IMG/VR virus record: IMGVR_UViG_3300037467_002795
DNA length: 63,177 nt
Strand: one strand, 5' to 3'
Origin: an uncultured virus (IMG/VR IMGVR_UViG_3300037467_002795)
Lineage: Duplodnaviria > Heunggongvirae > Uroviricota > Caudoviricetes
The notes under the pieces were generated by a model. It was not told the DNA's origin, did not search any database, and saw only the letters and a program-made list of their open reading frames with translations. Positions 3,507 to 63,177 of this stretch are shown one piece after another; the stretch's first letter is position 1, and every line of letters starts with the position of its first letter. A program made the translations under genes and the position numbers.

Positions 3507-3588
3507 CCGGCAGGAGAGGGGCAGTTGTCGCAAAGTGAGGTGGGGAGACATGTTGTTATTTAAGAGATGTCTCACTTCCCTGCCGGAA
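3507..3588. repeat. Convergent pair of motif A (CCGGCAGGAGAGGGG ... CTCACTTCCCTGCCGGAA)
   Basis: Seen directly in the gap between the tail tube gene and the next gene. Confidence 0.85.
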
Positions 3589-3701
3589 CTTCGCCTTCGT
3601 CGAAGGGACCACCCGGACAGCTTTGCTGGCCGCAACACGCACGAAGGGCAGGAGCCAAGCCCCCACCCTCCGTTTGTTAATCACGAGTGGCATAGCCAAT
3701 C

Positions 3702-4742
3702 TCAGGCCCGAAGCGCTACGGTCGGGTCGGCGGGGTGACTTACAGTTAGAGTATTCCACCCTTGATAAGAATATGTAATAGTCGCGTTCCCGCCGCCCCG
3801 GCCCGCGTTCCCGCCACTCATGTTGACCGAGGTCAGGCGATTTTGGGTGCCCATGTCGACCTTTGTCCCCTCCTGGGTGGCCACATAAATGTGCTCGTCC
3901 TGGGTGTTCTGGTAGTTCGCGTAGACCCCGGCCTGGGTGGCGGCGACGTGGTCCCCGTCCTTGGCCATGATTTCGATGGCGGTCGTGGTTTCGACCGGGA
4001 AATCCACGTAGCGGAAGTAGGGCCCGAACCGCCCGAGTTCCAGCATGTCGTTCCGGCCGAACGAACTCGAAATCCGGACGCTCTGGATGCCCACGGTGAA
4101 CGACCCGGACCCCGTGTCGTCGTTGGTCCCCGAGCTCGAAATCCCGTAAATGGACTTCGGCCACAGGCACCCCGACATAATCATATTCTGCCGGCGGTTG
4201 ACCCCTTCCGGGGCGGCCGGGGATGGGCTCGACACGCCCATCCCGGCGGTGAACCCCGTGAAGCTGAACGAGCCGGTCGCCCAGACCTTGTCGTTGCCGA
4301 CGAGCGTGACGCTCTCGCGGCTGGCCCCCTGGACCTGGAAGTCGTAGCCCAGCTGCGACACGTACATGCCGCTGCAAATCACCTGCGAGAGCTGGTTCCC
4401 GCTGGCGGTCGCGTTCGTGTCGGCGAACACGCCAATCGCGATGTTGGCCCGCTGGTTCGACCGGCCGACCAGAGTTCCCGCGGTCGCGCCCTGGGTGCAA
4501 CTGTGCCAGATGAGCGGGTAGCCGTCCAGGCACTTCTCGAGGGTCACACTGATATCGGGTACGCCGTCAACATTCTGGTATACGGCTAGCTGACCGAGTT
4601 CGAAGAATTGTTCAGGATTAAAAGAGGTATTAATCCCGACACTCTGAACACCTCTTAAAGTCGTGTAAGAGGTCGGCGACAGGTCGTAGGAAGCAACCCC
4701 CACAGACTCAGCCGCATAATAGACTCTGTGATTCAAAGACAT
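3702..4742 (-). CDS. Putative major tail (tube) protein
   Basis: 346 aa, Gly/Ser/Thr-rich beta-type sequence with an internal repeat (GVQSVGINTSF..ELGQ / GIQSVRISSSF..ELGR); follows the neck genes. Confidence 0.65.
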   Translation of the reverse strand: MSLNHRVYYAAESVGVASYDLSPTSYTTLRGVQSVGINTSFNPEQFFELGQLAVYQNVDGVPDISVTLEKCLDGYPLIWHSCTQGATAGTLVGRSNQRANIAIGVFADTNATASGNQLSQVICSGMYVSQLGYDFQVQGASRESVTLVGNDKVWATGSFSFTGFTAGMGVSSPSPAAPEGVNRRQNMIMSGCLWPKSIYGISSSGTNDDTGSGSFTVGIQSVRISSSFGRNDMLELGRFGPYFRYVDFPVETTTAIEIMAKDGDHVAATQAGVYANYQNTQDEHIYVATQEGTKVDMGTQNRLTSVNMSGGNAGRGGGNATITYSYQGWNTLTVSHPADPTVALRA

Positions 4743-4802
4743 ATACTAATACCGCCTGTTTGTCTGGGGTAGTCTCTTCACCACTCCCATACACCAAGGC
4801 GG

Positions 4803-5741
4803 TCAAGCACCATCAACTTCCAGCGTCAACCTCACGGTCGACCACCACACTTTTCGGCCAATATTCTCATTGTCGTGCGACGTGACTTCGGGCACGCGGA
4901 TTTGCAGCCAGGGGTAGGTCTGGCACAACTGAGGATAGGTCAAAGCGGAGGGGGTCGGCCGCCCGTACGGGTCGAGCGGGAGCGGGGCCGCATTGCGGTC
5001 GAACGACGGAATCCGCTTGTCCCGCTGTTTGACCAGCATCGCGCTCAGCCGCTTGCGGTCCCACGGGGTCTCGGCGAGCACGTGGACCAAAAAATTCTCA
5101 CTGTAAATCTGGGCCTCGTTCCCGAGCTCGTACGGGTAGCCGGTCCCGTTCAGCACAGGTTCGACCACCAGACACGGCAACTGAATGCGGTTCTGGGCCG
5201 GGACCGCCCAGGCCCCCGACGAGTTCGGCCCCCACTGCGGGTCGTCGGTCCGGAGGGAGCCCGCCAACAGGGACTGAAACCACGGCTCGTCCGACCGGCG
5301 GACGCTCACGAACCGCGGGCTGTACGCGGCCTGGATGACGGTCCCGGTCGGCACGGCATTTTGGAAAAAGACCTGCCCCAGCGGGTAGTTCACGTAGTGG
5401 GCGTACGTGCCGGTTGTGGACGAGGTCGGGTAAAACGTGCCGGACACCCACAGGCCACTGCACTGAATGGGCTGAGTCGTGCGGAGGATGCCGCTCTCCC
5501 AGCACCAGTCGCCGCGGTGGGCTTGCCAGACGGTTCCGGCAGGAAAGCGAGGGTCGGCGGCCGGCTGGAGACGCGACCGGTCGCCCCCGTACGCCCCGGG
5601 CTGGCCGACGCCCACGTTCTCGTAGGCCCCGACTTCCAGAAGTGCCCAGTTGAGCCACGCCGTTAAATTGCCCTCCAGTTGTTCGGTGGGCAAATAGGAC
5701 CCGTACTCGCCGATGCCGCCCTTGAACCCGTAATCGCTCAT
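4803..5741 (-). CDS. Putative tail completion/terminator protein
   Basis: Start MSDYGFKGG overlaps the upstream stop; synteny. Confidence 0.45.
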   Translation of the reverse strand: MSDYGFKGGIGEYGSYLPTEQLEGNLTAWLNWALLEVGAYENVGVGQPGAYGGDRSRLQPAADPRFPAGTVWQAHRGDWCWESGILRTTQPIQCSGLWVSGTFYPTSSTTGTYAHYVNYPLGQVFFQNAVPTGTVIQAAYSPRFVSVRRSDEPWFQSLLAGSLRTDDPQWGPNSSGAWAVPAQNRIQLPCLVVEPVLNGTGYPYELGNEAQIYSENFLVHVLAETPWDRKRLSAMLVKQRDKRIPSFDRNAAPLPLDPYGRPTPSALTYPQLCQTYPWLQIRVPEVTSHDNENIGRKVWWSTVRLTLEVDGA

Positions 5742-6400
5742 AACAACTTGCGGGCCTCCCGCTCGAGGAACTGGAGCAGGCGGGGGGCGGCCAGTTCGGC
5801 GGCCCGGGTCAGCCAGTTCGACCGGGCGGTTCCGGCGTACGCGGGCGGGACCCGGAACGGGGCGAGTTTTCCGCCGGCCTTGCGTTTGGCCATAATCAGT
5901 CGGCCGGTCCGGCTGTACGAGGGGTCGGCCCCGCTGAACAGCCCGTACTCGGTCAGCACGACGGTGTCCCCGGCGAACAACAACCACTTGAGCCACTCGA
6001 CGGGCGACGACTGGCCCTTGGCGTTCGTCGACAGGTAATACGCCCCTTCGGCCCCCAGAGCGTCCCCGAAGTCCTCGCGGATGGCCCCGGCCCACACCCC
6101 ACCTAGATACTCTCCTGCCGGAGGAATCACTTCGACGCGGGCGGCGGCCTGAATGGCTCGGACAATTGAGGCGACAGCCTCCTTCCCGTCGACCACGCCG
6201 AACTCTTCCCGGAGCTGGCCGGCGACGAGCGAGCTGTACTCGGGGGTGGCGTGCAGGGCTTCGGCAACGGTCTCGCGGACTTCCGGCAGGAGAGTGTCAG
6301 CCAGGGCCCTCAATTTGGGCACGGCCTGCCGCTGGAGCTCAACCAGAATCTGACCGGGGAGGCGGGCGAGGTCGGCGTCGACCGTGACGGTGATGGCCAT
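5738..6400 (-). CDS. Putative neck/tail-completion protein
   Basis: Start MAITVTV coupled to the upstream stop; synteny. Confidence 0.45.
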   Translation of the reverse strand: MAITVTVDADLARLPGQILVELQRQAVPKLRALADTLLPEVRETVAEALHATPEYSSLVAGQLREEFGVVDGKEAVASIVRAIQAAARVEVIPPAGEYLGGVWAGAIREDFGDALGAEGAYYLSTNAKGQSSPVEWLKWLLFAGDTVVLTEYGLFSGADPSYSRTGRLIMAKRKAGGKLAPFRVPPAYAGTARSNWLTRAAELAAPRLLQFLEREARKLL

Positions 6401-6891
6401 CAGGGGGCCCGCTTCCACTGTAAAACGACGAACACACCCTGGACGATGTTCGACACGTCCACGGGGTCGTCGTCCCGGACGTACATCCACCGGGCGACCG
6501 CGTCGAGCTCGGGCTGTAACTGCATCCGTTCGGCGGCCCGTAACTTGGGCAGGTCCGTCAAGTACCCCTTGGTCTGGATGGTGCCGTCGGGAATCTGGAT
6601 GTTGGGCGGCGGCTTCTTCCAGAAGTCCTTGGGGTGGACGGCCACGCCCATCTTGAGCGTCTCACTGACCTCTTTCGCCCGGAACCCGCTCCCCCCGCAC
6701 AGTGGACAGGTCGTCACGTCCCCGGGCGGGGCCGGGCCGCCGGTCAGCCAGACGTTCCCTGCACACCCGCACGTCTCCTGGGTCGGCGGGTAAAACAACT
6801 TGCAGTTCTTGCCTAGCTCGGTAATCAGGTCCTCCAGGGCCTGCTGGGTGACCGATTTGATGGCCGGGGTGAGAGTGAAGAGCGTACCCAT
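6400..6891 (-). CDS. Putative head-closure protein with CxxC motif
   Basis: CPLCGGSG motif; position after the adaptor gene. Confidence 0.45.
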   Translation of the reverse strand: MGTLFTLTPAIKSVTQQALEDLITELGKNCKLFYPPTQETCGCAGNVWLTGGPAPPGDVTTCPLCGGSGFRAKEVSETLKMGVAVHPKDFWKKPPPNIQIPDGTIQTKGYLTDLPKLRAAERMQLQPELDAVARWMYVRDDDPVDVSNIVQGVFVVLQWKRAP

Positions 6892-6909
6892 GACTCACGA
6901 GGCTCGTCG

Positions 6910-7143
6910 TCAAGAGGTCGCCGGGCCACCGGGCCGTTCCCACCCGTCCGTCCCGCCGGCCTTGAATCGCCCGTCGAGGGTCGTGCCGAGCCCAGGGTCG
7001 GTCATCCCATCCACCGCGGGCGGAATCTTGTCCACCTCGGTGGTCAGGATGGCGTTCGAGGTCGTAAACCCTTCTGGCGACAGAATGGTCGCCCGGACCT
7101 GGTCAATCGTTTTCTTGGAGTCGTCGTGGTAGTAGATTGGCAT
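6910..7143 (-). CDS. Hypothetical protein
   Basis: MPIYYHDD... fills the operon gap. Confidence 0.55.
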   Translation of the reverse strand: MPIYYHDDSKKTIDQVRATILSPEGFTTSNAILTTEVDKIPPAVDGMTDPGLGTTLDGRFKAGGTDGWERPGGPATS

Positions 7144-7157
7144 TTGTCCCACCCGCG

Positions 7158-7682
7158 TTAGCGGGTGCCCCACCTATAAATCCCGGCCGTCCCGAACGGC
7201 ATGTCGGTCCCGTACCCGCTGAACAGCCGGAACGGGCTGACCACCGCGGCCCCGGTCTGGACCCCCCGCTGGCTGACCAAGTACTGTTCCCGCATGTCCT
7301 GGTAGACCGCGTTCCACCCCTTCAGCATCAAATCGAGTTTGGCGGTGAAGGCGGCCCGCAGGTCGACCTCGCTCGCCCCGTCGCGGACCCGGATGGCCTG
7401 GTCGGCGGCGGCGGTCGCACTCCCCCGGTCGATAATCCCGGCCGTCTTGACCGTGACCAGGTCCACGAAATTGTCGTCGGGCTGGGCCAGTAGCGTGGGG
7501 TCCGGGTCAATCGTCTGGCCGACCACATCGACCGTGAAGGCGGTCGGAAAATCCACGTCGAAAATGACGAGCCGGGCCCCCACGCACAGGGCCTGGGTCA
7601 GGTCGTCGTTGCTGTACTTGGTGGACGCGCGGTCGCTCACGTACCACCGCAGCATCGGAATCATCACGTCGGTCCATGCCAC
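7158..7682 (-). CDS. Putative head-tail adaptor
   Basis: LRWYVSD..KYSNDDL pattern; immediately after the capsid gene. Confidence 0.55.
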   Translation of the reverse strand: MAWTDVMIPMLRWYVSDRASTKYSNDDLTQALCVGARLVIFDVDFPTAFTVDVVGQTIDPDPTLLAQPDDNFVDLVTVKTAGIIDRGSATAAADQAIRVRDGASEVDLRAAFTAKLDLMLKGWNAVYQDMREQYLVSQRGVQTGAAVVSPFRLFSGYGTDMPFGTAGIYRWGTR

Positions 7683-7787
7683 GGTCAGCGGGCCTCCCCC
7701 GGCGTCCCCAGCAACACAATCAGTACGAACATGGTGGCTCTCCTGCCGGACTCATACACCACACTCGCTCTGCTCGTGTGGGCGGCA

Positions 7788-7823
7788 CAAAACGAAGGGG
7801 CCGGGCGTTTCGTGCCCGGCCCC
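7788..7823 (-). terminator. Intrinsic terminator after the major capsid gene
   Basis: GGGGCCGGGC/GCCCGGCCCC stem followed by TTCGTTTT on the minus strand. Confidence 0.75.
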
Positions 7824-7850
7824 ACGAGGCGACATTCTAATTTATGTCTG

Positions 7851-8885
7851 TTAGATGGCCCCGACGAGCACTCTCCGCCCGTCACAACACAACCAGCCGT
7901 TTTCTCCGTACAGATAATACGACTGTCGCCGCTGCCGCTTGAACCCCTCGTCTTCCTCAACCGTCGGCTCCTGCCGGACCGGGTTCATGAACACCCCGTC
8001 GTGGGAGAGGTCGAGCCCGACAACCAGTTCGAGCTTGGTCTGGGACGAGTTATCGCCCGTGTAGGTGTAGGTCGGAAGGCTTCCACCCAGGGTGTTCAGG
8101 TAATACTGCTGGAACTCCTGTCCGAGCCCGAGTTCGTCCAGGGACCGAATCTCGGTCCCGAAAACCTTCATCCGGTCGAGGTCCTCGGCGTCGTAGATGT
8201 CCCGCCGGGTCCACGGGTCGAGGGTCTCGACGCCCCACGACCGAATGTCGCCCATCGCCTCGGGGCTGGTGTACAGCCGGTCGAGCCGCCCGCGGTTGAC
8301 GCTCGTGCTGTTCCCCCCGGCCTGCCGCCGCATGATAATCTTCATGAGCTCGACCTGCCGCTTGGTGAAATACCCGGGCTTGGCGGCGTCGTCGTACACG
8401 GTCAGGAACCGGTTGTAGCCGGCGGCCAGGAGCACCCGCCAGGCATCGCTGTTCTTCTTGCGGGTGACCCCGCCCTCGAGCACCTCGAGGGCTCGCCCGA
8501 CGATATTCCAACGGGCGTCGCGAGCGTACTTGGTGGCGAAGTCGATGCTCGAGCCGTACTCGTAGGTCGGGACCACAATGTAGTCGCCGTCCACGTGCCG
8601 CTCGGGAATCCGCCCCTGGGCCGGGACCGTGTAGGCGACGTGGTCGACTTCGGTCCCAGGAGTGAGGAAATCCAGCGGATATTCGGCCGAGACGCCGGGT
8701 TGGAGCTTTTCCTCTTCGAAAACGTCGGACGAGATGTCGCCCTTGAGCACGCCCTGCCTCAGGACAGGTGTGAGGGCCCTGGCCAGTTCGTACCGGCCTT
8801 GGGCGGCGACGGCCCGGTCGTCGCTCCCCGCCCGCTTTAAAAGGGCAGTCATCAGCGGGCCGGGTTCGCTCGAAAAACGAGCCAT
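7851..8885 (-). CDS. Major capsid protein (HK97-like fold)
   Basis: 344 aa, very high GC3, AGGAG RBS, followed by a terminator; position after the scaffold and decoration genes. Confidence 0.75.
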   Translation of the reverse strand: MARFSSEPGPLMTALLKRAGSDDRAVAAQGRYELARALTPVLRQGVLKGDISSDVFEEEKLQPGVSAEYPLDFLTPGTEVDHVAYTVPAQGRIPERHVDGDYIVVPTYEYGSSIDFATKYARDARWNIVGRALEVLEGGVTRKKNSDAWRVLLAAGYNRFLTVYDDAAKPGYFTKRQVELMKIIMRRQAGGNSTSVNRGRLDRLYTSPEAMGDIRSWGVETLDPWTRRDIYDAEDLDRMKVFGTEIRSLDELGLGQEFQQYYLNTLGGSLPTYTYTGDNSSQTKLELVVGLDLSHDGVFMNPVRQEPTVEEDEGFKRQRRQSYYLYGENGWLCCDGRRVLVGAI

Positions 8886-8943
8886 GTTACCAAAACTCCT
8901 CTTATATGAAGTCAGTTTAATTCGTTAGTGTGGACCGCAGGCC

Positions 8944-9411
8944 TCACGGCACCTTGATAGTCACAATGGCGAACCCGTCGGTCCCCTTGCCGGTCTGGAA
9001 GTACCCGATGGCCGGGATGCTGTTGACCTGCGAGTTCTGAATCTGGCCGTTGCTGCCGAGGTACGCGGTGTCGCCGGCCGTCGGGGTCCCGCTCACCTGA
9101 TTGGTCCGGACCCACCCGTCCTTGAGAATCGCCACGTTCTCGCCAACGAGCTGTTCGGTCCGCTGGAAGTTCCGGTGCTGGCGGGTCGGGTCGATGTTGA
9201 CCACGTAATCCATCAGGATGCCCAGCACGCGGGTGCCCGAGGCCGGGGTGCCCGAGCCCGGGGCGGCCACGGGGGCCGTGTCGTTGATGCCGGGGCTGAC
9301 CCCGCGGCCCCCCGACTGCGACGGGAGGACCATCACGACCCCCTGCTCCGCCGCAACATTGCAGATGTGTCGGATGTCGGTGATGTAAACGGCGCGGTCG
9401 CCCTTGAGCAC
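8944..9411 (-). CDS. Putative capsid decoration/cement protein
   Basis: 155 aa; GWVRTNQVSGTPTAGDTAYLG pattern; lies between scaffold and capsid. Confidence 0.6.
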   Translation of the reverse strand: MLKGDRAVYITDIRHICNVAAEQGVVMVLPSQSGGRGVSPGINDTAPVAAPGSGTPASGTRVLGILMDYVVNIDPTRQHRNFQRTEQLVGENVAILKDGWVRTNQVSGTPTAGDTAYLGSNGQIQNSQVNSIPAIGYFQTGKGTDGFAIVTIKVP

Positions 9412-9425
9412 GGTCAGTCTCCCTA

Positions 9426-11024
9426 TTATTTGGTCTTAACTTTGTTCTTGCGGGCGGAAGCCCGGGTGGCCTTAAGGCCACGCTTGCCGTCACCCGGGGC
9501 GTCCTGGTCGTCGCCGTCCGGGTTGTCGCCCGGGTCCTTGTGGCCGAAGAAGCTCAGCATTTCCGAGGCGAGGGCCTGGGCCGCGTCGTCGGCGGTCGCG
9601 GTCGAAGTGGCCGTCAGGTCGACCTGGGTTTCGGCCGGCTTTTGGGTCGCGGCGGAAGCGACAGCAGCAGCCGCCGCGGCGGCCTTCTCGGCTTCGGTGG
9701 GCTGGGCCGGGGTCACCGCCGGAGTCGCGGCCTTCTTGAGTTCCGCGATGGTCGCCAGGTGGGCGGCGAAGGCCTCGTCCGGCAGGGAAGCGAGGGTGGT
9801 GACGGTGGCCAGGGCCTTCTCGTCGCTGTCGAACCCGTAGGCGGTCCGGACCTGGGCGACCCGGTCGGCCTGCTTGCGGGCGGCGTCCGCCTTGGCGGTC
9901 TCTTCCTTCACCTTGTCCAGCTGGGCGACCAGTTCGGCCTTGGCGGCTTCGGCGGTCGCGAGGGCCGTCTTGGCGGCGGTCAGTTCCGCGTCCTTGGCGA
10001 CTAGGCCGGCCTTGGCGGTTTCGAGGTCGGCCGCGATTGCGGTCTTGGCCGCGGTCAGGTCGGCGACCTGTTTCTCGAAGTTCGCCTGGCGGGCCTCGTC
10101 CAGCTTCTTGTTGGCCTCGGCGAGCTCGGCCTTAAGTTTATCAAGCTCGTTCACTGATACTTCCTTTTGGTCGGCTTTATTATTGCCGCTGGCAGTCTCA
10201 TACCCCGGCGCGGAAAAAACTTTCGAAATTTTCTTGGCGGTCGCCCCGGAGGTCGGGGGCAGGATGACGGACTGGGGGTTCGCCGGCACCCGGACGAGCC
10301 CAACCCCGCTAAAGGTCAGGTTCTTGAACACGCGGAGGACCCGCCGGTCCCGGTACTTGCCGGTCCCGCCGTAGGCCCGCAAATGTTTGGTCAGGAAGGC
10401 GGTCGCGTCGTTGCGTTCGACGAGTTCGGCGTCGGCCGTCGCGAGGGCGTGTGAGTCGCCCCCCTGGGGGGCGAGCAAGTAGTCAAAGCCCTTGAACCGG
10501 CACTCCATCGAGACGAACCAGGCGTTCTCGGGAGTCGGGTTGTCCAACTCCGCTATCGCCCGGTTCATCCACTCCTGGCGGTCGGGGTAACCCGGCCAAT
10601 GCCGGTAGAGGACCGCGGACCCGCCGACGTGGAAGGAGTTGGGGGCACTGTCGCCTGTGAAGACCGAGCCGTCCTCGGCGAGTACCCGAGCGGCAGTCAT
10701 GTGACCGATGACGACAGCCGCCTTGTGTTCCTCGTTGAAGGGCTTGTCGACGGGGGACTGGCGGGCCCCCCAGGTCTCGGCGGTCGTGAAAAAGTCGTCG
10801 TTCAAGTTCGGCCCGGTCGAGGCCAGCACGAAGTCAATCGGGTACAGGTCCGGCAGGGAAAGGTTGGTGCCCGAACCCGCGGTGGCCCTCAGTCGGTCGA
10901 GCGTGTCCTGGTTGACTTCCCTGCCGGAAAAGACCGCCCGGCTGGCGGTGCAGACGGACGCACTGCGAAGAAGGGATTCGAGGCCGGCGTCGATTTCGTC
11001 ACGGAAGATTATCACGGAGTCCAC
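9426..11024 (-). CDS. Prohead protease / scaffold fusion
   Basis: N-terminal NLNDD..KPFNEEH..IGH..VSMEC..FSGVGLV..PAN protease-like motifs plus an Ala/Lys-rich coiled-coil C-terminus. Confidence 0.75.
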   Translation of the reverse strand: MDSVIIFRDEIDAGLESLLRSASVCTASRAVFSGREVNQDTLDRLRATAGSGTNLSLPDLYPIDFVLASTGPNLNDDFFTTAETWGARQSPVDKPFNEEHKAAVVIGHMTAARVLAEDGSVFTGDSAPNSFHVGGSAVLYRHWPGYPDRQEWMNRAIAELDNPTPENAWFVSMECRFKGFDYLLAPQGGDSHALATADAELVERNDATAFLTKHLRAYGGTGKYRDRRVLRVFKNLTFSGVGLVRVPANPQSVILPPTSGATAKKISKVFSAPGYETASGNNKADQKEVSVNELDKLKAELAEANKKLDEARQANFEKQVADLTAAKTAIAADLETAKAGLVAKDAELTAAKTALATAEAAKAELVAQLDKVKEETAKADAARKQADRVAQVRTAYGFDSDEKALATVTTLASLPDEAFAAHLATIAELKKAATPAVTPAQPTEAEKAAAAAAAVASAATQKPAETQVDLTATSTATADDAAQALASEMLSFFGHKDPGDNPDGDDQDAPGDGKRGLKATRASARKNKVKTK

Positions 11025-11031
11025 GGCACCC

Positions 11032-11376
11032 TCAATCGGTCCACTCGGGCAACTCGACCGTCTGCCCCTTCAGCTCGTGCGAGCAATCGGCAAGGAATTG
11101 GATTCGGCCGTCCGCCACGAACGAATGGCACCGCGGCGTGTTGGTGACATTGTCCGGCGAGGTGAGGGCTTCGCCCTGAAGGTCGTGGTCGACAAACGTC
11201 GGGTGCGGGTGAGCCAAGATGGACGGCATGAACGTCGGCCGGTCGTCGCTCCCGTTCCAATCCCAGAAGAACTTGTCGGCGGCCCCGTCTTCCCGGACCG
11301 CAACGCCGTGGGCAGTCTTGCACCCCGGACACCTGAACATTCGGAGGCCGGGACACGGGCGGCGGAGCTTGGCCAT
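11032..11376 (-). CDS. Small Cys/His protein (DUF6527-like)
   Basis: CPGC..H, WDWNGS..PTFMPSI, RCHSF..GRIQFLADCSH. Confidence 0.6.
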   Translation of the reverse strand: MAKLRRPCPGLRMFRCPGCKTAHGVAVREDGAADKFFWDWNGSDDRPTFMPSILAHPHPTFVDHDLQGEALTSPDNVTNTPRCHSFVADGRIQFLADCSHELKGQTVELPEWTD

Positions 11377-11377
11377 A

Positions 11378-11710
11378 TCAATCCCGCTTGAAGAACGACA
11401 GGAGTTCGTCGGCCAGCCCGTCGTCACCGAACGCTTCAGTCTTCGTCACGAACCCGGCGTGGGCGGACGGCTTGGCCCCGGCGGAGGCGAGGGCCCGGCC
11501 CGCGGTCGTATCGGCCGCGACCGTCCGGTGGACCTGCCGGTAGTCCTCGTCGTCGTTCTCATCGATTTGACAAATTTCGAGACTATAGTCGTCCCGGCTG
11601 CCATAGGGTAGGTAAATATTGACACTATTGACGTTCTCAAGGGCCTTGCCGTCCACCGAGCACGCCAGCGTCTTGTCGACCGTGTCAAATTCAATTGCAA
11701 TTTTGGCCAT
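11378..11710 (-). CDS. Hypothetical protein
   Basis: Tightly packed operon ORF with a GAGGAG RBS. Confidence 0.6.
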   Translation of the reverse strand: MAKIAIEFDTVDKTLACSVDGKALENVNSVNIYLPYGSRDDYSLEICQIDENDDEDYRQVHRTVAADTTAGRALASAGAKPSAHAGFVTKTEAFGDDGLADELLSFFKRD

Positions 11711-11712
11711 GT

Positions 11713-13917
11713 CTACTCCTCGTCCTCACATACACCGTCGTCGTCATCAAACGTGACAAGTGCGTACGCCATCGCCCGCAACTGGCGGGTCTGGTCGGCG
11801 GCCGGAGGCTTCCCGTATTCGGCCACGTGTCGGGCGACCGCGGTCTGAACCAGTTGGTCGACGGCCGGGAATACGCGGGGGCCGGCGGCGAGAGCGGCCC
11901 GAACACTCTCGGGGCTGGCCGGGGAATTGACCGCGTGGGCACACAGGACGCCGAGCTTGACCCGCTCGAAGGCCTCTGCGTCCGCGTCCGTCAGTTCGCG
12001 GGCGGTCTTAAGTCCCTTGGCTGCCAACAGAGACGGCCGGAGGACCTCGTCGACCGTCTTGAGGGTCGCGTCGGCCCACAACGAAGCCCGAGCCAGGGCG
12101 GCTGAGGCCTGCTTGGGGGCCGGGCGTTTTGTTTTGCGTTTGGCCTGGTCTTTGGAACCGGCCGGTCGCCCGTTCGGCTTGGGGTTTTTCTTGTCGCCTG
12201 ACGGCGCACCTCCGGCAGGAGAGGGAGCAGTAGGACGCTTGGCCGGGGGAACCTCGCCGGGCTTGGGCGGGGGCAGGTCGAGCCCGACCTGGGACGGGGT
12301 CACCTCGCCCTGGCCCAATAGGGTCTGGTGAAGCTTGGCCTTCTGCTGAGAGTCCTGGTGGTACGGGCCGGCCTTCGGCGGCAAAGCCCCCTGCTCCCGC
12401 TTCCGCCCTTCCTGCCGGATGCGGGCCTGTTCGATATCGGGGTCGGCCCCGAACCGCTGCTGGACGTAGGTCGCGCTGATGACATCGCGGTCGATGAGGT
12501 CCCTCAACAGGGCCTTCTCGGCGGCATCGTCGGACAGGTCGGGCACGGCGAACGACAAGCTGAACGGCTGGCGGAACCCGAACGTCTGGCGGAGAATTTC
12601 GAGCTCGCTCAGCCAGAATTGCGAGAGCACCATCCGGGCGTACTGGAGCCGCTCGACGAGCACCCGCAGGGACACAAAATTGTTCGTCATCCCGGCGTCG
12701 GTCATCGCCCCGGTCAGGGTCGGCGGGACCCCCAGGCCGATGAACAAGTTCTGCATGGTCTGGGCGTACTTGTCCTTACCCAAGAACCGGTAGATTTCCG
12801 TGCCGGTCTCGACCAGTTCGAGGTCGGGGCCCCAGACCAGGTCCATGCACCCGCCGCCGGTCGAGTGCAGGAGGATGTCCGCCAGCATTTGGCAGGCTTC
12901 CTGGTTCGGGATAATCTCCTTGTCGAGGTTCCCGAGCTTCCACACGCGGACGTGCGAGATGGCCCCGTCGAGGGCACTGCGGTCCGCCATCCGCAGCTTC
13001 TCGAACATCTGGAGGTCGTCCAAAACCGCGTTCAAAAGCGGCGTGGCCCAGACCTCGTCGTCGTCCTTCTTGTACTGCAAAATAACGGTTTTGTTGGGTT
13101 CGAGCGGGACCCACTTGTCGTTGACCATCCGCTGCCGGAGGGCGGCCGGGATGCGGCTAACTAGCTGCTTGTCGGCGACACTCCGCGGGGTCGTGATGCG
13201 TTTGAGGAGGGAGTCCGGCGGACGGACCGCGTACGTGACGACGTCGTCGCCAATGAACTGGGCCAGTTCCCCGCCGATGGCCTCGACGGTGACCGGGTTC
13301 AGGACCTTGTAGCCGACCGGAATCTCGCCCGGGGGTAATTTCGTCCTATCGGAACCATTATCGGCCCCCACCGCCGCAACAGCCCGTAAGGAGGCTATGT
13401 CGTTATTGGCCAGTTTGGCAGTTCGACGCCTGATGGGGGCGACGGCTTCACGGAAAAGTCGACGGACAATCCGGTCGCTCACACCGGCGATATCGGCTTT
13501 TTTGGCCCACTCTCGCCCCCACGCCTGCACCTTGGCGGCCGGGTGAACGACCTGGATTCCCTTGTTCACGAAATCCGTCATCATGTCGACGGTATTGCGA
13601 ACAATGGAAAATCGCTTGTAGGCCATCTGGCAGGCGGACTGTATCCCGTGAACTTCGGTCGGGAGCCGCTCGCCCGGCCGGAAAAAGTCGTAATCCTCGC
13701 GGTTGAACCCGTCGCGGACCGAGATGCCCGGCTTGTCGATGTTCCGGAACGTGCCGATAGCGGTCGCCCGTTCGGCACCCTGGGCACTCCGACTGGCAAC
13801 AGCCCCGTACCCGACCGCGGCGGCGTTCAGGGCGGCCTGCTTGCCCTTCACGTCGCTGGACTTAAAGGTCTGGTAAAGCGGGCGTTCGGGACTGTTTTCG
13901 GGGCGAGTTCTGCGCAT
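11713..13917 (-). CDS. Portal protein
   Basis: About 735 aa directly after the terminase; VRNTVDMMTDF, LGVPPTL motifs; start could be 13962. Confidence 0.75.
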   Translation of the reverse strand: MRRTRPENSPERPLYQTFKSSDVKGKQAALNAAAVGYGAVASRSAQGAERATAIGTFRNIDKPGISVRDGFNREDYDFFRPGERLPTEVHGIQSACQMAYKRFSIVRNTVDMMTDFVNKGIQVVHPAAKVQAWGREWAKKADIAGVSDRIVRRLFREAVAPIRRRTAKLANNDIASLRAVAAVGADNGSDRTKLPPGEIPVGYKVLNPVTVEAIGGELAQFIGDDVVTYAVRPPDSLLKRITTPRSVADKQLVSRIPAALRQRMVNDKWVPLEPNKTVILQYKKDDDEVWATPLLNAVLDDLQMFEKLRMADRSALDGAISHVRVWKLGNLDKEIIPNQEACQMLADILLHSTGGGCMDLVWGPDLELVETGTEIYRFLGKDKYAQTMQNLFIGLGVPPTLTGAMTDAGMTNNFVSLRVLVERLQYARMVLSQFWLSELEILRQTFGFRQPFSLSFAVPDLSDDAAEKALLRDLIDRDVISATYVQQRFGADPDIEQARIRQEGRKREQGALPPKAGPYHQDSQQKAKLHQTLLGQGEVTPSQVGLDLPPPKPGEVPPAKRPTAPSPAGGAPSGDKKNPKPNGRPAGSKDQAKRKTKRPAPKQASAALARASLWADATLKTVDEVLRPSLLAAKGLKTARELTDADAEAFERVKLGVLCAHAVNSPASPESVRAALAAGPRVFPAVDQLVQTAVARHVAEYGKPPAADQTRQLRAMAYALVTFDDDDGVCEDEE

Positions 13918-18959: not shown

Positions 18960-18967
18960 CGCATTCG

Positions 18968-53604: not shown

Positions 53605-54880
53605 TTCGGGTTCGGAGAACCCGTTCGGAGCCCTCGAAGAACTTGCGGCACGCCAACAAGCCGCCGACAAGGCGAAGTTGGCCATCACGGCGGCCCGAGC
53701 CCGCTTGCTGCTCGGGCGAGACGCCAAAAGCGTGTTCTTCGCGACCCTGGCCTTGCGGCTGAAGGTGGAGGAGGACTGGACCTGCGAGACGGCGTGGGTC
53801 GACGGCAAGACTTTGGGCTACAACCCCAGCTTCATTAGTGGTCTGACGCTGGACGAGGTGGTCGGGGTACTCGTCCACGAGACGTTACACGTCGGATTGG
53901 CCCACCATGTGCGGCGAGGGGACAGGGACCCGACCAAATTCAACGAAGCAGCAGACCTGGCCGCCAATTCCATCATGAAAGGAGCGAGCTTTAAACTGCC
54001 GAAAGGAGCGTTGTTTCCCGGCGAGGGTAAGTACAAAGATTTTGCGTCCGACTTGTCTGCCGAGGAGTATTATGTAATGTTGCCGCCGGACCCACCACCG
54101 AGCGAGAGCAATGACGGTCAGGGTGACGGAGGCGGAAACGGCGAAGGTCAGGATGAAAACGTGAGCGACAGCGTGCGACCGGGTCGGGACCCGGGGCGCA
54201 CAGGGGAGGTCCGAGACCCCGGCCAGGGCAGTCCCGCAGAGAAGGCGGACGCCAAAGCCGATTGGGAAGTGGCGGTCGCCCAGGCCGAGCAGGCAGCCAA
54301 GCAGAGAGGCCCCCTTCCTGCCGGACTAGCCCGAATGGTGGACCAGGTGTTGAGGACGCCCGCCGACTGGCGGGCTATTCTGCGAGAGTTCGTTTCCCAA
54401 CAAGCCCGCAACGATTTCAGTTGGAGCAAACCGAACAGGCGGTTTATCGCCCAGGGGCTGTACCTGCCCGGTTTGCACAGCGAGGAGCTCGGTGAAGTGG
54501 TCATCATGGTGGACTGCTCGGGGTCTGTCGGCCCGAACGAGCTGGCCATGTTCGGTTCGGAAATCGACGGGATTCTGTCCAGCTACGAATGTGAAGCGAC
54601 CATCCTCTATCACGACGTGGAAGTGGTTGGGGTCGAGCACTGGCGGTCGTCGGACGGCCCGCTAAAGCTGGAGCCTGTCGGGGGCGGGGGCACGTCGCAC
54701 CGCCCGGCGTTCGACTGGGTGAGCGGAGCTCACCAGGGAAGTGGAGCAGCATGTGTGGTTGCCCTGACCGACCTCTACACGGAGTTTCCTCGTCAAGCAC
54801 CAGATGTTCCGGTCTTATGGGCGGTGGTCGGAAACAAGGGGGCCGAGGCTCCTTTTGGTCGGATTATTCATTTGGACTAA
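53588..54880 (+). CDS. HExxH metallopeptidase-like + VWA domain protein (DUF2201-like)
   Basis: HETLH, N.A.D, MIDAS DCSGS, GGGT, LTD. Confidence 0.88.
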   Translation: MPSRCDSGSENPFGALEELAARQQAADKAKLAITAARARLLLGRDAKSVFFATLALRLKVEEDWTCETAWVDGKTLGYNPSFISGLTLDEVVGVLVHETLHVGLAHHVRRGDRDPTKFNEAADLAANSIMKGASFKLPKGALFPGEGKYKDFASDLSAEEYYVMLPPDPPPSESNDGQGDGGGNGEGQDENVSDSVRPGRDPGRTGEVRDPGQGSPAEKADAKADWEVAVAQAEQAAKQRGPLPAGLARMVDQVLRTPADWRAILREFVSQQARNDFSWSKPNRRFIAQGLYLPGLHSEELGEVVIMVDCSGSVGPNELAMFGSEIDGILSSYECEATILYHDVEVVGVEHWRSSDGPLKLEPVGGGGTSHRPAFDWVSGAHQGSGAACVVALTDLYTEFPRQAPDVPVLWAVVGNKGAEAPFGRIIHLD

Positions 54881-55956: not shown

Positions 55957-55963
55957 AGTAGAT

Positions 55964-56087
55964 AGTCGGTTTCACCGACAGAAGCGTAATTCCGGCAGGG
56001 AAGGGACACAGGGGTGATTGGCGGGTGGAGTTTCAGCGAGCGAAGCGGACCATGCAATCCCCCCTATTGGCCCCTACCCTGCCGGAA
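55964..56087. repeat. Composite element: hairpin + A + B' + A'
   Basis: GTCGGT-TTC-ACCGAC .. TTCCGGCAGGGAAGGG .. GCAATCCCCCCTATTGG .. CCCTGCCGGAA. Confidence 0.88.
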
Positions 56088-58585: not shown

Positions 58586-58739
58586 TTCCGGCAGGAGAGG
58601 GACAGGGTGGTGTCGGAAGAAGGCTCGGCCCACCCAAGCAATCCCCCCTATTAAGAGTGAGTGAAGCGAATTTACCCCTCTCTAACCCTTACTTCCCTGC
58701 CGGACCTTCGGTCCCGTCGGCGGACGCCGACTGCCGGAA
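58586..58739. repeat. Composite element A + B' + A' + reverse hairpins
   Basis: TTCCGGCAGGAGAGGG..GCAATCCCCCCTATTAA..CTTCCCTGCCGGACC-TTC-GGTCC GTCGGC-GGAC-GCCGAC TGCCGGAA. Confidence 0.9.
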
Positions 58740-58772: not shown

Positions 58773-59558
58773 ATGTCTGAGGAATCTTTCTTACAGGCCA
58801 TCTACCGCAATCCCCGAGACGACATGCCGAGACTGGTCTACGCGGATTGGCTGGACGAGAACAGCAACAGTGACCGGGCCGAATTCATCCGTCTCCAATT
58901 CGAGATTGCAGCCCAACGAGCGGGCCTCGTCGCTGCTTCAGAAGAGAATGACCGGCGACAGGATTGGTTAGAGCAGCGAGAAAGGGAACTTTTAGAGAAG
59001 AACTGGCAACAATGGCTGCGACCTCTTCATAGTTGGATACTCTATCGAAATTGCGATACAAACATACTCACTTATGAAAACATAACAGGGAACCGTGCCG
59101 TTGTACGTTTTCGCAAGGGCTTCCCCGGCGAAGTGAATTTAAACACAGACACTTTTCTCGGTATTCCCTGCCTAGCCCATGCTAGGTCCGGCGAGAACTG
59201 CATTAACTGTGGCGGAACAGGCGCCACAAAGGGGGCCGCCCTCACTCTCCTACCGGAACTGCCCACTGTTACCAAAATAAGCTTAGCTGACAAGCGGCCA
59301 TCCGAGTGGTCCGAAGACGCAGGCTCCTCATCGTTCGACGGACGAACTTTTTACTCGTGGTTTGGCCCTGAATCTATCCTTGGGCTGGACCAAGAACATA
59401 CCAGGATTCCTGAACCTTTATTTCAGCTGATGATGCGAGCGGGGCACAAACAGGGGAATTTTGGTCACACCCTGCGGTTTGAGACGGCGGCAGATGCCCA
59501 AGAGGCTTTGTCCGAGGCCTGCCTGGGCTACGCCCAGAGTTTAAAGGAGAAGTTATGA
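58773..59558 (+). CDS. TIGR02996-domain protein
   Basis: SFLQAIYRNPRDDMPRLVYADWLDEN..RAEFIRLQ; FRKGFP. Confidence 0.88.
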   Translation: MSEESFLQAIYRNPRDDMPRLVYADWLDENSNSDRAEFIRLQFEIAAQRAGLVAASEENDRRQDWLEQRERELLEKNWQQWLRPLHSWILYRNCDTNILTYENITGNRAVVRFRKGFPGEVNLNTDTFLGIPCLAHARSGENCINCGGTGATKGAALTLLPELPTVTKISLADKRPSEWSEDAGSSSFDGRTFYSWFGPESILGLDQEHTRIPEPLFQLMMRAGHKQGNFGHTLRFETAADAQEALSEACLGYAQSLKEKL

Positions 59559-61326: not shown

Positions 61327-61695
61327 ATGAACCACATTCGTGTCTATTACAATTTGCATACTCAAAATTACTCCTTGAAAAATTCCGGCAGGAAAGGGAG
61401 AGTTATGGCTCACCAGGACGAAGTCTTGCTCCACAACTGCACATTCAAAGTCTGGGAAGGAGGCCGCCAGCGGGTCTTGCGAGAAGGACGGAAGATGGTG
61501 CATGCTTTCTGCGTCGGTGCGTTGGCTAATCCGGAGGATTTACCGACGCACCTAGAGCGACCGGAGCGAGTCCGCTATAATCCGTACGAAACGAAGACGT
61601 TCGTTCGGGCCGATTCTGGCGAACCTATTTTTGAGGCTGCTTGGGTGCTCCTAAAGAAGGAGAGAGACAAGCCCGTGGTTTTGGCTTATTCATGA
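61327..61695 (+). CDS. Conserved-looking phage hypothetical protein
   Basis: RVYYNLH..FKV.EGGRQRVLREGRKMVHAF..YNPY. Confidence 0.7.
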   Translation: MNHIRVYYNLHTQNYSLKNSGRKGRVMAHQDEVLLHNCTFKVWEGGRQRVLREGRKMVHAFCVGALANPEDLPTHLERPERVRYNPYETKTFVRADSGEPIFEAAWVLLKKERDKPVVLAYS

Positions 61696-61741
61696 CTTCC
61701 CTTGCGGGAAGTTTTAACAATTCCGATAGGGGGCGAAGCCC

Positions 61742-61864
61742 ATGTGCGACTTACTGGCCGACATCACCATCGAACGCGGCTCTGATTTTTGGCTAGCCGG
61801 GTTCATCGTGATGGCAATTGGCGGTATTAAAATCTTTATCGAGGAACTTACCAAGGACCAGTAA
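61742..61864 (+). CDS. 40 aa membrane peptide
   Basis: Preceded by a GGGC-GAA-GCCC start hairpin; one hydrophobic segment. Confidence 0.5.
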   Translation: MCDLLADITIERGSDFWLAGFIVMAIGGIKIFIEELTKDQ

Positions 61865-61866
61865 TA

Positions 61867-62352
61867 ATGAAACATTACCGAGCAGTTCACCACAGTCTCT
61901 GGCCCGACGGCCTGGACGAAGTGCTGAAGACCGAACGCAGCCAACCCGAACCGTTCACGCGGCGAGAGCTCGAACACCGGTTGGGAGACCAGCGGTCCCC
62001 AACTTACTTGGTACTGGCGGTCGATACTCGCGACCGTATTGCCGGTCACCTGATTTACACCTGCGATGAGAAAGAGCGGTTCGTCGTTGTAGACCGAATT
62101 GCGGCTCGTGGTCGGAATTCTCTCGCTGCCATTTCGCCCGTGCTCTTAGAGCACCTGAAGGATGGCGGCCAGTTCAAGAGGCGTAGGTGGGTGAGGGCCT
62201 GGGTGCCCCTGGTCTCCGACCAGACGGCACTTTGCCGAGCCCTTGCTGATTGCGGGTTTTCCTCGTTCTTGGAAGACCACAACGTGATTCGTTTTGGACT
62301 CCGTTCTTGTGCCGAGCGAAGCGAGACATGGACATTACAAAAGAAGTCGTGA
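61867..62352 (+). CDS. Degenerate GNAT/RimI-like paralog
   Basis: LDEVLKTE..EPFT..IAGHLIY..RRRWVRAWV; lacks the RxxGxG motif. Confidence 0.55.
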   Translation: MKHYRAVHHSLWPDGLDEVLKTERSQPEPFTRRELEHRLGDQRSPTYLVLAVDTRDRIAGHLIYTCDEKERFVVVDRIAARGRNSLAAISPVLLEHLKDGGQFKRRRWVRAWVPLVSDQTALCRALADCGFSSFLEDHNVIRFGLRSCAERSETWTLQKKS

Positions 62353-62630
62353 CGGGTGTTTTTATTTTGTGTTTCGGGATGTTGGTGACCGGTGTGGTTA
62401 ACTCGACTGTCTGGGTCGCTAACAAGATTGCCCGGAGCGGAATTGTGGGGCTGTGCGTAGCCGGCACTGGCTTCGCCGGTCTTGGCACATTTGGCGTCGT
62501 AGGCGTTCGGGCGGGGTCCCTGTCCGACGAAGTGTTTATCCCCCTCACGGTGATGTCGTTCATGGCCTGTGGCTTCTGTCTGGTGGCCGCGCAACTGCGG
62601 TTTCTTTCCGCCCGCAATCTACCTGATTAA
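62328..62630 (+). CDS. Small membrane protein
   Basis: Three hydrophobic segments. Confidence 0.55.
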   Translation: MDITKEVVTGVFILCFGMLVTGVVNSTVWVANKIARSGIVGLCVAGTGFAGLGTFGVVGVRAGSLSDEVFIPLTVMSFMACGFCLVAAQLRFLSARNLPD

Positions 62631-62643
62631 AAGGGAACCAACT

Positions 62644-63015
62644 ATGACCATCAACAAGTTCTTCACGACCACAAAAGAACTGCTGTGGCCACCTCTCGGC
62701 GACGGTTTTTACAAAGCGCTCCATCTCCTGCAAGAAGAATCTGGTAAGTGGACTATCCTGAAACACGACGACACCATCCAGTACGCGACAAACGACCTGG
62801 TCATCACGGCCGGTTTCAACCGTGTACTCGGACGGCGCATCACCGTCAACGGGTATCCCGTTTTCAACTGGCGAGAAGAGAGTAAGCTACTGAAGGTCGC
62901 CGAAAAACTTTTGCTGCTAAAGTTGGCTGACAAAGCAACCAAGGAAGCTCGTGCGGTGTCGGAGGGACACAAGCGAGCTCTCAAGACCCTCTTGGGACAT
63001 CCTCAAAATGCCTGA
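62644..63015 (+). CDS. Hypothetical protein
   Basis: AAGGGA RBS. Confidence 0.6.
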   Translation: MTINKFFTTTKELLWPPLGDGFYKALHLLQEESGKWTILKHDDTIQYATNDLVITAGFNRVLGRRITVNGYPVFNWREESKLLKVAEKLLLLKLADKATKEARAVSEGHKRALKTLLGHPQNA

Positions 63016-63177
63016 AGCGGCTTTGCCGCCTGGTTGTGTCGCCCCAAGAAGAAGTTCGTTCTCTCAAGTCTTGACTTCCCTCCGGTTCAGTCACACAATT
63101 ATTCCGGCAGGAGAGGGGACAGTAGGGCGGGAAAGGTGAACTCGTGGGCGGGTAGCCGCATCACCCGTGAACGAAGT

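Follow-up and report, generated by a model that had tools for sequence, protein, structure and literature searches.

To our knowledge, genome-wide phage-private sites have been worked out for only a handful of systems in culture (L5, P1, RK2). We describe here a dispersed nine-letter word, TCCGGCAGG (motif A), in a stretch of 63,177 nucleotides (nt) from an uncultured virus of the Caudoviricetes (IMG/VR record IMGVR_UViG_3300037467_002795). We call this stretch the window; it is phage DNA and belongs to a genome of about 150 kb, as judged from contig completeness estimates. Several described systems share features with motif A. KorB of plasmid RK2 and Noc of Bacillus are ParB-family proteins with many dispersed palindromic sites, 13-16 bp long, that are bound by dimers. 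Uptake sequences (uptake signal sequences, USS, and DNA uptake sequences, DUS) have a strict 9-mer core and a weaker one-sided extension, occur about once per kb on both strands, lie mostly in genes with a higher density between them, and form inverted hairpin pairs behind genes. Known Chi sites are 5-8 nt long and oriented.

Three further systems come from phages. The stoperators and operators of Cluster A phages (L5 gp71; the TipsytheTRex repressor) are asymmetric 13-mers, more than 20 of them across the genome, which lie in promoter regions and short intergenic spaces in an orientation locked to transcription and are read by the monomeric two-domain immunity repressor (gp71 family) of a temperate phage (PMC9283540). 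The start-associated sequences (SAS) of Cluster K phages lie 3-7 bp upstream of starts, in one orientation and in the right arm only, and extended SAS come with imperfect inverted repeats; their function is given as unknown (PMC3203893). The promoter early stem-loops (PeSLs) of T4-like phages are terminator-promoter cassettes (PMC4122927).

Motif A is real, strongly selected, and follows an unusual rule of pairing. The first-pass annotation of the window had put the word at about 50 dispersed copies on both strands, with about one expected by chance. The exact count is 51 (30 plus, 21 minus), and 100 dinucleotide-preserving shuffles of the window gave a mean of 1.10 and a maximum of 4, so that 51 was reached in 0/100. 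All of the positions that it had listed proved correct (28/28 forward and 15/15 reverse), while eight copies had been missed (17142+, 41089+, 7970-, 12411-, 16932-, 20083-, 21240-, 54317-), and the start of its range, 3507, turned out to be a single-mismatch copy (ACCGGCAGGAGAG, at 3506) and not an exact one. We then extended the count to a composite of 147,140 bases, joined from the window and three overlapping public IMG/VR contigs: G001, which is window 1-21123 at 100% identity; G005, whose end is window 1-5637 at 100% identity; and G004, which is 99.5% identical to G005 over 58 kb and 81-94% identical to window 1561-17769, and adds 25 kb leftward. The composite holds 103 exact copies (54 plus, 49 minus), or about one per 1.4 kb. 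An order-3 Markov background gave a mean of 4.2 and a maximum of 11 (30 runs), and an order-5 background, which was trained on the same genome and so already contains the word, gave a mean of 14.9 and a maximum of 23. Within genes, 60 copies were seen against a mean of 8.0 and a maximum of 15 in 30 shuffles that kept the proteins and the codon use of each gene. The enrichment thus survives both Markov and codon-preserving backgrounds, the check that the first-pass annotation had suggested for it.

The word is also sharply bounded. A weight-matrix scan of the composite at 12 bits or more found only 15 sites beside the 103 exact ones (2 in a shuffle), nearly all of them single-mismatch variants of the core; so few near-misses indicate that motif A has no decaying family around it. 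The purine tail previously ascribed to most copies is present, as four purines 3' of the core, in 45/51 window copies, and 37/51 match TCCGGCAGGRRAG, the core followed by RRAG. This one-sided extension reads R, R, A (45/51), G (42/51), then K, G, R. On the 5' side there is a weak A at -3 and a T at -1 (T in 28/51), which gives the full form (A)n(T)-TCCGGCAGG-RRAG-KGR. The core has no self-complementarity, and across the composite the asymmetry is strong: A11 and G12 of the right tail are found in 89/103 and 87/103 copies, and the left mirror positions hold T in 32/103 and A in 50/103. By tail class the 103 copies comprise 35 GAAG, 28 AGAG, and 16 AAAG/AAGG, with GG at the first two tail positions in 1/103.

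Genes were called by our own crude caller based on codon usage, which makes the following in-gene and intergenic counts approximate. Of the composite copies, 60/103 lie in called genes and 43/103 between them, with intergenic DNA making up 16% of bases. The in-gene copies are divided almost evenly between sense (31) and antisense (29) and use all six frames, being translated as PAG (23), LPE/LPD (17), xRQ (14), SGR (4), and xCR (2). This use of six frames and both strands places the signal at the level of DNA, with no peptide repeat; a peptide repeat or a codon effect was considered and excluded by the six-frame use together with the synonymous-codon shuffle (60 vs 8.0). For lack of an in-gene strand preference, neither an RNA signal nor a general promoter can explain the in-gene copies. 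There was no crowding at gene ends (14 and 9 of 60, vs 11.4 expected), and copy density was alike in the replication/metabolism block, the structural block, and the right arm (22-63 kb of the window, plus strand). Among genes with Pfam or PHROG support, the tape measure gene holds four copies and the terminase, portal-like, ribonucleotide reductase, and DnaE genes hold two each.

Close copies follow a rule of orientation. Inverted orientation is found in 28 of the 31 pairs of neighbors within 450 bp: 20 pairs are convergent (tails facing inward) and 8 divergent, which leaves three direct pairs. Within 120 bp there are 13 convergent, 2 divergent, and 0 direct. Beyond 450 bp the orientation looks random (38 inverted vs 33 direct). 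Many large genes hold exactly one such inverted pair. The two tails of a pair tend to differ, with GAAG joined to AGAG in 13/28 pairs vs 7.2 by permutation (P = 0.007). Unlike tails weaken the stem beyond the 9-bp core, which argues against selection for a perfect hairpin, and on sequence grounds they would speak for two bound proteins instead.

Comparison with the relative G004, which diverges from the window by 6.9% over 14,953 aligned positions, indicated that the word is maintained. An exact core is kept by 10/13 aligned copies, and differences occur at 4/117 core positions and 142/1404 positions in 120-nt flanks; the three copies lost include the two with the poorest tails. In the stretch of 99.5% identity between G004 and G005, 34/34 cores are kept, nearly all differences fall within one divergent 4.8-kb segment, and there are no indels across the 58 kb. 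The cores kept in G004, together with the enrichment and the sharp definition of the word, support the earlier proposal of a selected cis-acting signal.

We also searched for motif A outside of this genome. In two IMG/VR pattern scans, the word-rich contigs were only pieces of this phage species, and the other returns were singletons along with G002 (3 copies) and G003 (1 copy). A 37-kb contig with 11 copies (G411) was tried as a second carrier and rejected: it had no tblastx match, no purine tail follows its copies, and TCCGG is generally abundant in its genome. Another contig of 7.7 kb (G413) held one hairpin only. A metagenome scan for motif A followed by its inverted copy found at least 119 loci, with at most 4 copies per 10 kb among the matches listed; hairpins of this kind are frequent in their own right. 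Scanning species genomes for a 17-mer returned at least 120 single matches in unrelated taxa. We counted the 13- to 16-mer in 401, 201, and 151 genomes of the phyla of three of these matches (Phycisphaerae, Terriglobales, Actinomycetota) and found maxima of 15, 2, and 1 copies, that is, no enrichment in the 753 bacterial genomes sampled of about 200,000 species; the unpublished genomes G570, G467, and G738, which were among those counted, had 0-2 matches each. The planctomycete with 15 copies (G352) was considered as a word-rich genome and rejected, as 13 of the copies sit in identical copies of one insertion sequence. Literature searches by the 9-mer string (titles and abstracts) and for bacteriophages of Planctomycetes or Gemmata gave nothing related among the matches listed.

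In the right arm, motif A takes part in a fixed arrangement with a second motif. Motif B (consensus AATAGGGGGGATTGG, mostly preceded by CTT) has 28 copies at up to three mismatches in the composite (2 in a shuffle), of which 20 lie in the window, for example at 28544, 28811, 29871, 33353, 38269, 41676-, 42479-, 44207-, 47878, 54887, and 58102. It contains the stop codons TAA/TAG, a G-run that is a candidate ribosome-binding site, and a start; an ATG follows immediately in 14/28 copies, and several of these ATGs open real genes. Motif A abuts 10/28 motif B copies on the upstream side. A unit composed of A, about 5 nt, B, ATG, 15-45 nt, and an inverted A recurs at seven or eight places, in either orientation relative to neighboring genes. 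Where B is reversed, the open reading frames (ORFs) that it would open are 6-42 codons long with mostly negative coding scores, which indicates that those units are non-coding. Promoter-like sequences are a further association: 4/43 intergenic copies start 3-10 nt after a sigma-70-like promoter matching 9 of 12 positions, vs 1% of random intergenic positions. These are the copies at 30974, 33003, and 63103 and one in the G005 part, two of the four lying within a 360-bp duplication. The unpaired intergenic copies of the right arm are all co-oriented with transcription (11/11). The copies and units are listed below in window coordinates.

Exact 9-mer copies of motif A:
3575-3587, minus: intergenic, directed at the gene start at 3494
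5535-5547, plus: in gene, antisense; core changed in G004
6110-6122, minus: in or at the edge of a gene, sense
6282-6294, plus: in gene, antisense; divergent pair with 6114
7738-7750, minus: intergenic
7966-7978, minus: in gene, sense, weak tail
9778-9790, plus: in 532-residue structural gene, antisense
10849-10861, plus: in gene, antisense; convergent pair with 10920
10916-10928, minus: in gene, sense
12211-12223, plus: in portal-like gene, antisense; convergent pair with 12411
12407-12419, minus: in portal-like gene, sense
16928-16940, minus: in terminase gene, sense; lost in G004
17142-17154, plus: in terminase gene, antisense; lost in G004
20079-20091, minus: in gene, sense
21236-21248, minus: in sigma-like gene, sense
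21469-21481, plus: in gene, antisense
25558-25570, plus: intergenic, unpaired, sense
26807-26819, minus: in gene, antisense
27288-27300, plus: intergenic, unpaired, sense
35841-35853, minus: in gene, antisense
49158-49170, minus: in GP88-family gene, antisense
54313-54325, minus: in DUF2201 gene, antisense

Pairs, modules, and copies at promoters, hairpins, or gene starts:
24685-24724: tight inverted pair 24685+/24716-, 31 nt past a stop codon; RNA hairpin of -27.2 kcal/mol, z -5.0
28412-28522: divergent pair 28416-/28510+; the plus copy is followed by 25 nt, motif B, and a small gene
30974-30986, plus: 10 nt after promoter-like TTGACT-17-TATTTT
31728-31766: tight inverted pair 31728+/31758-; -27.5 kcal/mol, z -7.2
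33003-33015, plus: 10 nt after promoter-like TTGAGA-17-TATTTT, in the 360-bp duplicate of the 30974 region
34526-34538, plus: 17 nt before the ATG at 34552; tail reaches into the ribosome-binding region
36362-36386, plus: 42 nt before the ParB-like gene; 9 nt further on, an inverted degenerate core, CTGCCGAA
36413-37102, plus: orphan ParB/Noc/KorB-like protein of 229 residues, candidate reader
38253-38317: module of A, 5 nt, motif B, ATG, inverted A (38253+/38309-)
38994-39069: module in the opposite orientation (38994+/39061-), motif B reversed
41089-41101, plus: 11 nt after a double hairpin
41645-41706: module with exact 41645+, B reversed, degenerate inverted TCCGGCAGA at 41699
42448-42509: module with exact 42448+, B reversed, degenerate inverted copy at 42501
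43591-43603, plus: 11 nt after a hairpin
44154-44166, plus: 11 nt after the hairpin GTCGGC-CTT-GCCGAC
47860-47925: module within the DUF3560-methyltransferase ORF, with exact 47860+, B, degenerate inverted copy at 47917
48714-48776: module with exact 48714+, B reversed, degenerate inverted copy at 48768
51269-51314: tight inverted pair 51269+/51306-; folding z -3.3
55991-56086: long palindromic module of A, B-like, reversed B, reversed A (55991+/56078-); -56.9 kcal/mol, z -5.6
58587-58704: convergent pair 58587+/58696- with reversed motif B between
61384-61396, plus: 12 nt before the ATG of the L5 gp82-family gene
63103-63115, plus: 3 nt after promoter-like TTGACT-17-CACAAT

Single-mismatch copies:
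3506-3518, plus: ACCGGCAGGAGAG
19840-19852, plus: TCCGGCAGAAGAG
59245-59257, minus: TCCGGTAGGAGAG

Other repeated elements share the intergenic spaces of the right arm. The direct duplication mentioned above, 360 bp at 86% identity, joins window 30930-31288 and 32959-33318, and in both duplicates a small gene is accompanied by a sigma-70-like promoter, motif A, and a reversed motif B. Behind stop codons stand small G+C hairpins whose loops are 3 nt long (GTCGGC-NNN-GCCGAC), often 11 nt before motif A; they are found at 41040-41075, 41602-41634, 43550-43580, 44125-44142, 48496-48512, 49654-49670, 55963-55979, and 58705-58735. Their stems show paired changes (GTCGAC/GTCGAC, GTCGGT/ACCGAC), and four of the hairpins are fused to the variant TCCGGCAGT of the core. 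A further start-associated motif, GGG(A/G)GCGAAGC(T/C)C, which could form a hairpin with a GAA loop, lies directly before the ATG of at least five genes (33081-33100, 38441-38460, 39110-39130, 39810-39830, 61724-61744). Contigs from soil runs, which differ from the window at 262 positions, show losses among these elements: some are without the 276-bp cassette 29889-30166 between two B motifs, with 23 other letters in its place, and some are without the 33-bp hairpin unit at 41046-41080. A loss of the 582-bp gene cassette 41046-41629 between two hairpin modules is possible, the shorter side of the join being only 25 letters. Motif B and the hairpins, and not motif A, mark the joints of these cassettes.

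We read motif A, tentatively, as a phage-private site in double-stranded DNA of about 13-17 bp, putatively recognized by a sequence-specific DNA-binding protein that the phage encodes. It is the most likely of the explanations considered, though we hold it with somewhat less than even confidence. On this reading, a protein would dock at about a hundred sites. In the right arm, where such sites closely follow sigma-70-like promoters, immediately precede ribosome-binding regions, or bracket motif B and its ATG as inverted pairs, the docked protein may gate initiation and block a passing RNA polymerase in the manner of an operator or roadblock. Copies within genes might serve as further roadblocks, or as sites for loading onto or coating the whole chromosome. 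That right-arm copies sit at promoters, ribosome-binding regions, and gene starts favors a role in controlling expression, and the even spread through genes on two strands together with the inverted-pair rule argues for a genome-wide role.

Motif A works most like a Cluster A stoperator network and fails its features of location and orientation. The likeness is that of an asymmetric, phage-private 13-mer with tens of copies genome-wide, found at promoters and gene junctions, with the unpaired intergenic copies of the right arm co-oriented with transcription, 11 to 0. Unlike stoperators, 60/103 motif A copies are in genes (31 sense, 29 antisense), copies near each other are inverted, and their number is about three to four times as high. 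No repressor-family match was found by Pfam on 190 ORFs or PHROGs on 32, a comparison in which no direct search with the gp71 sequence was made, and the same scans revealed neither an RNA polymerase nor an integrase or recombinase; no sign of lysogeny was seen. The start-associated sequences of Cluster K find their counterpart in the companion motif: motif B, not A, behaves like SAS, being asymmetric, in the right arm, and a few bases before an ATG, and having imperfect inverted repeats. Unlike SAS, motif A is genome-wide, on both strands, in genes, and not tied to starts, and its inverted copies flank motif B and the ATG where SAS have their repeats upstream. The PeSLs resemble the right arm in that small variable genes are flanked there by composite cassettes (hairpin, A, ribosome-binding motif) in the intergenic spaces, and strain contigs have lost cassettes between repeated intergenic motifs; they differ in being absent from genes, and the joints here are at motif B or hairpins and not at A.

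The best candidate for a reader is the 229-residue product of the plus-strand gene 36413-37102. Its description as ParB-like by the first-pass annotation gained support from several comparisons. Its family counts at least 364 representative proteins, and ParB_N is matched by 60/68 aligned members, the window protein alone falling below threshold. Homologues P0002-P0006 reach 39-48% identity in an alignment, and one of them is encoded on a contig of 66.7 kb. The family profile matches Noc, Spo0J, and ParB in the PDB, and a confident predicted model (predicted local distance difference test score, pLDDT, 95.3) matches the fold of Noc, ParB, and KorB over about 200-224 columns in structures that span the N-terminal and DNA-binding domains. 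The gene stands behind a canonical terminator, and the motif A copy followed by an inverted degenerate core before it looks like autoregulation. As for KorB and Noc, the phage encodes a ParB-family protein for which we saw no ParA partner, and many dispersed sites, some in genes or far from promoters, would suit a clamp that loads and slides. The sites themselves differ from those of KorB and Noc in being asymmetric and in occurring at a far higher number per kb. With ParB-family sites palindromic and motif A asymmetric, this protein is a lead and not a finding, and we regard it as a rather unlikely reader of motif A. The fuller version of this idea, also unlikely in our estimate, is that the roughly 100 asymmetric sites load this orphan ParB/Noc/KorB-like protein, putatively a cytidine triphosphate (CTP) switch, as sliding clamps on the phage's DNA and not on the host's.

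Several observations weigh against a docking site for a phage protein. The first-pass annotation had proposed such a site, and the proposal stands as the best reading of the evidence, reached by elimination and from context alone. Most copies (60/103) are in genes without strand preference, unlike classical operators or stoperators. In the left 70 kb, 5/6 unpaired intergenic copies are opposed to transcription, so that the 11:0 orientation of the right arm is no general rule. Sigma-70-like sites overall are not commoner than in shuffles (10 vs 6.2, 7 vs 6.3). In the stretch of 99.5% identity there are 6 differences in site windows vs 2.6 expected. Pfam scans of the 190 ORFs showed neither an integrase nor a recombinase, which leaves a lysogenic repressor network unsupported. 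For the ParB-like protein in particular, the palindromic sites of its family count against it, and IMG/VR yielded no relatives with DNA context. Finally, the reader may be a host protein, or the word a host repeat.

An alternative is that motif A tags the phage's own DNA for a machine moving along the DNA, much as USS/DUS or Chi do, so that a phage or host translocase, nuclease, recombination enzyme, or packaging enzyme could tell phage from host DNA or be switched by the word. The statistics of motif A resemble those of uptake sequences in the strict core, one-sided extension, density, use of both strands, predominance in genes, and inverted pairs behind genes, and convergent pairs exceed divergent ones by 20 to 8, a geometry that would protect a break between them. 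USS, DUS, and Chi are words of bacterial chromosomes used by host machinery, however, and motif A was seen in one phage species only: no other phage reached by the scans was rich in it, and neither were the bacterial genomes sampled (0-15 copies in the 401, 201, and 151 genomes; single hits among the matches listed in the 17-mer scan). Motif A shows no orientation skew, unlike Chi, and a self-tag leaves the fixed placement beside motif B and gene starts unexplained. We consider this explanation unlikely.

Less probable again, at a level we would call low, is a target for a site-specific enzyme, either a nickase or a DNA-modifying enzyme, for which the methyltransferases and sugar-pathway enzymes of this phage could be candidates. 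Localized single-strand nicks occur in T5-like and some Pseudomonas phages. Nine near-invariant positions (103 exact vs 15 near-miss) are typical of enzyme recognition, the word lies on both strands and in genes, and its core includes CCGG; the phage encodes a C5 methyltransferase, the DUF3560-methyltransferase, HNH endonucleases, a DndB-like protein, and many glycosyltransferases. However, neither modification nor nicking needs an enrichment of 25-100 fold, and nicks on opposite strands 30-100 bp apart, as at the 13 convergent pairs within 120 bp, would make fragile DNA.

An element acting at the level of RNA is similarly improbable. The pairs would then be terminators, stabilizing hairpins, or processing sites that hide the ribosome-binding site, with the tail as a Shine-Dalgarno sequence. 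RNA folding agrees with this in part: 9/10 paired regions exceed shuffles in stability (z -2.8 to -7.2), three tight inverted pairs stand directly behind stop codons, and the AGAG tail holds AGGAG, with motif A 9-17 nt before an ATG at 34526, 61384, and 7742. However, the module at 48710 folds no better than shuffles (z -1.0), no T-run follows the tight pairs, and the window had no Rfam match at the gathering score. Such an element would cover only the paired intergenic copies (24/103), while the in-gene strands are split 31 to 29 and the unlike tails of pairs weaken their stems.

That the word is a host-derived repeat or binding site, and not private to the phage, seems very unlikely. The case for it is that the genomes counted are 753 of about 200,000 species; against it stand the lack of enrichment in those genomes and the unrelated IMG/VR phages without it (G002 with 3 copies, G003 with 1, and G411 with 11 that have no tail).

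There is only a slim chance that motif A is a promoter, at which host RNA polymerase would be redirected by the sigma-like protein 20746-21591 and transcripts would start at the purine tail. That protein has a weak extracytoplasmic function (ECF) sigma match (TIGR02937, E-value 7e-5, below the cut-off; Sigma70_r2, E-value 9e-4), all 11 unpaired intergenic copies of the right arm run in the direction of the genes, and the order hairpin, A, ribosome-binding site, gene resembles the PeSLs (PMC4122927). Yet 29 in-gene copies are antisense and 19 intergenic copies are directed away from any gene start, convergent pairs 30-120 bp apart would fire at each other, motif A forms one G+C-rich block and shows no conservation at -35/-10 spacing, and no phage RNA polymerase was found among the scanned ORFs.

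The ends of miniature mobile elements (miniature inverted-repeat transposable elements, MITEs, or repetitive extragenic palindromes, REPs, and their paired form, REPINs), another possibility raised at first pass, or joints of gene-cassette recombination are highly improbable: some intergenic modules are bounded by inverted A and cassettes are lost between repeated intergenic motifs, but 60 copies run through intact genes, 15/20 convergent pairs have no abutting direct repeat or target-site duplication (the rest at most 4 nt), in-gene pair lengths show no preference for multiples of 3 (3, 2, and 2 cases at 0, 1, and 2 modulo 3), which together rule out insertions, and the cassette joints are at motif B or hairpins, with no indels in 58 kb at 99.5% identity. 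Elements of the MITE and REP/REPIN types are extragenic insertions that have inverted ends and either a target-site duplication or a fixed tetranucleotide at the flank. The suggestion of a recombination site did not find support either. Mosaic breakpoints at motif A in strain contigs were examined and rejected: 9/12 junction words recur elsewhere in the phage genome, so that the apparent breakpoints are cross-matches of other A-bearing regions and not evidence. The three unmatched junction words flank short matches at 35844-35877 and 44223.

This phage was present in DNA runs from soil and rhizosphere. A megablast of 10 kb against phage records gave no match, the portal-like protein had no tblastn match in 50,697 phage records, and DnaE had about 30% identity to many phage records. 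The searches spoke neither for nor against the Gemmataceae host assumed by the first-pass annotation. The window had no tRNA. Its left arm (about 1.2-21.5 kb, minus strand) encodes the large terminase with a LAGLIDADG intein, portal-like and head-cement-like proteins, an HNH endonuclease, and the weakly sigma-like protein. The right arm encodes many small genes, two methyltransferases, an exonuclease, an AAA ATPase, a DUF2201 pair, and L5 gp82-family and GP88-family proteins. Beyond the window, the composite encodes DnaE, DnaB, primase, SSB, a RecA-like protein, ribonucleotide reductase, ThyX, PhoH, many sugar-pathway enzymes, a tape measure of 3,067 residues, and a TnpB fragment.

Several of these genes have features of their own. 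The terminase gene (13963-17409, minus) has its LAGLIDADG intein at window 15530-16785, about residues 209-626; the intein is absent from the 93%-identical relative G004, which has 32 nt in its place. Adjoining the terminase is a 401-residue HNH endonuclease (17856-19061, minus), whose C-terminal part matches PHROGs named Srd anti-sigma factor and decoy of host sigma-70. The sigma-like protein (281 residues, 20746-21591, minus) is at the head of the structural arm, and its sub-threshold ECF sigma matches come without a PDB sequence match; its neighbor at 19913-20779 has 288 residues. Between the DUF6527 gene and the next gene, G004 has 318 extra bases at window 11377/11378. At the left end of G004 (L012, 75-665) lies the TnpB fragment, with a Cas12f1-like TNB domain and a motif A copy 44 nt beyond it. 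A helix-turn-helix protein (mobile mystery protein A) and a Fic protein form a pair adjoining the tape measure gene (L020, 8097-9168, minus); the Fic protein had one homologue, at 47% identity, among 151 Planctomycetota. The G005 part (L018-L019) encodes a DegT aminotransferase, glycosyltransferases including a GT9 heptosyltransferase, a PfkB kinase, a nucleoside triphosphate (NTP) transferase, a 5' nucleotidase, and ThyX, and G004 encodes a DndB-like protein. This block of sugar and nucleotide genes and the DndB-like protein suggest surface-sugar or DNA hypermodification chemistry.

Motif A is an unusually clean and extreme case of a genome-wide phage site, with about 100 exact copies running through essential genes in all frames, and it combines the inverted-pair rule and the unlike tails of pairs with a fixed grammar beside a start-associated motif at early genes. 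It offers a defined site for binding assays with a handful of candidate proteins and, whichever reader is the right one, a specific signature for tracing this phage lineage in soil data. If the reader is a repressor, the sites would form a roadblock network independent of orientation. If the ParB-like protein is the reader, an asymmetric site and a site density that are unknown for the ParB family would be added to it, and CTP-clamp biology would be extended to the marking of a whole genome by a virus. The clamps would then mark the phage chromosome as self, time the transcription of early gene modules, and perhaps shield or organize the replicating genome.

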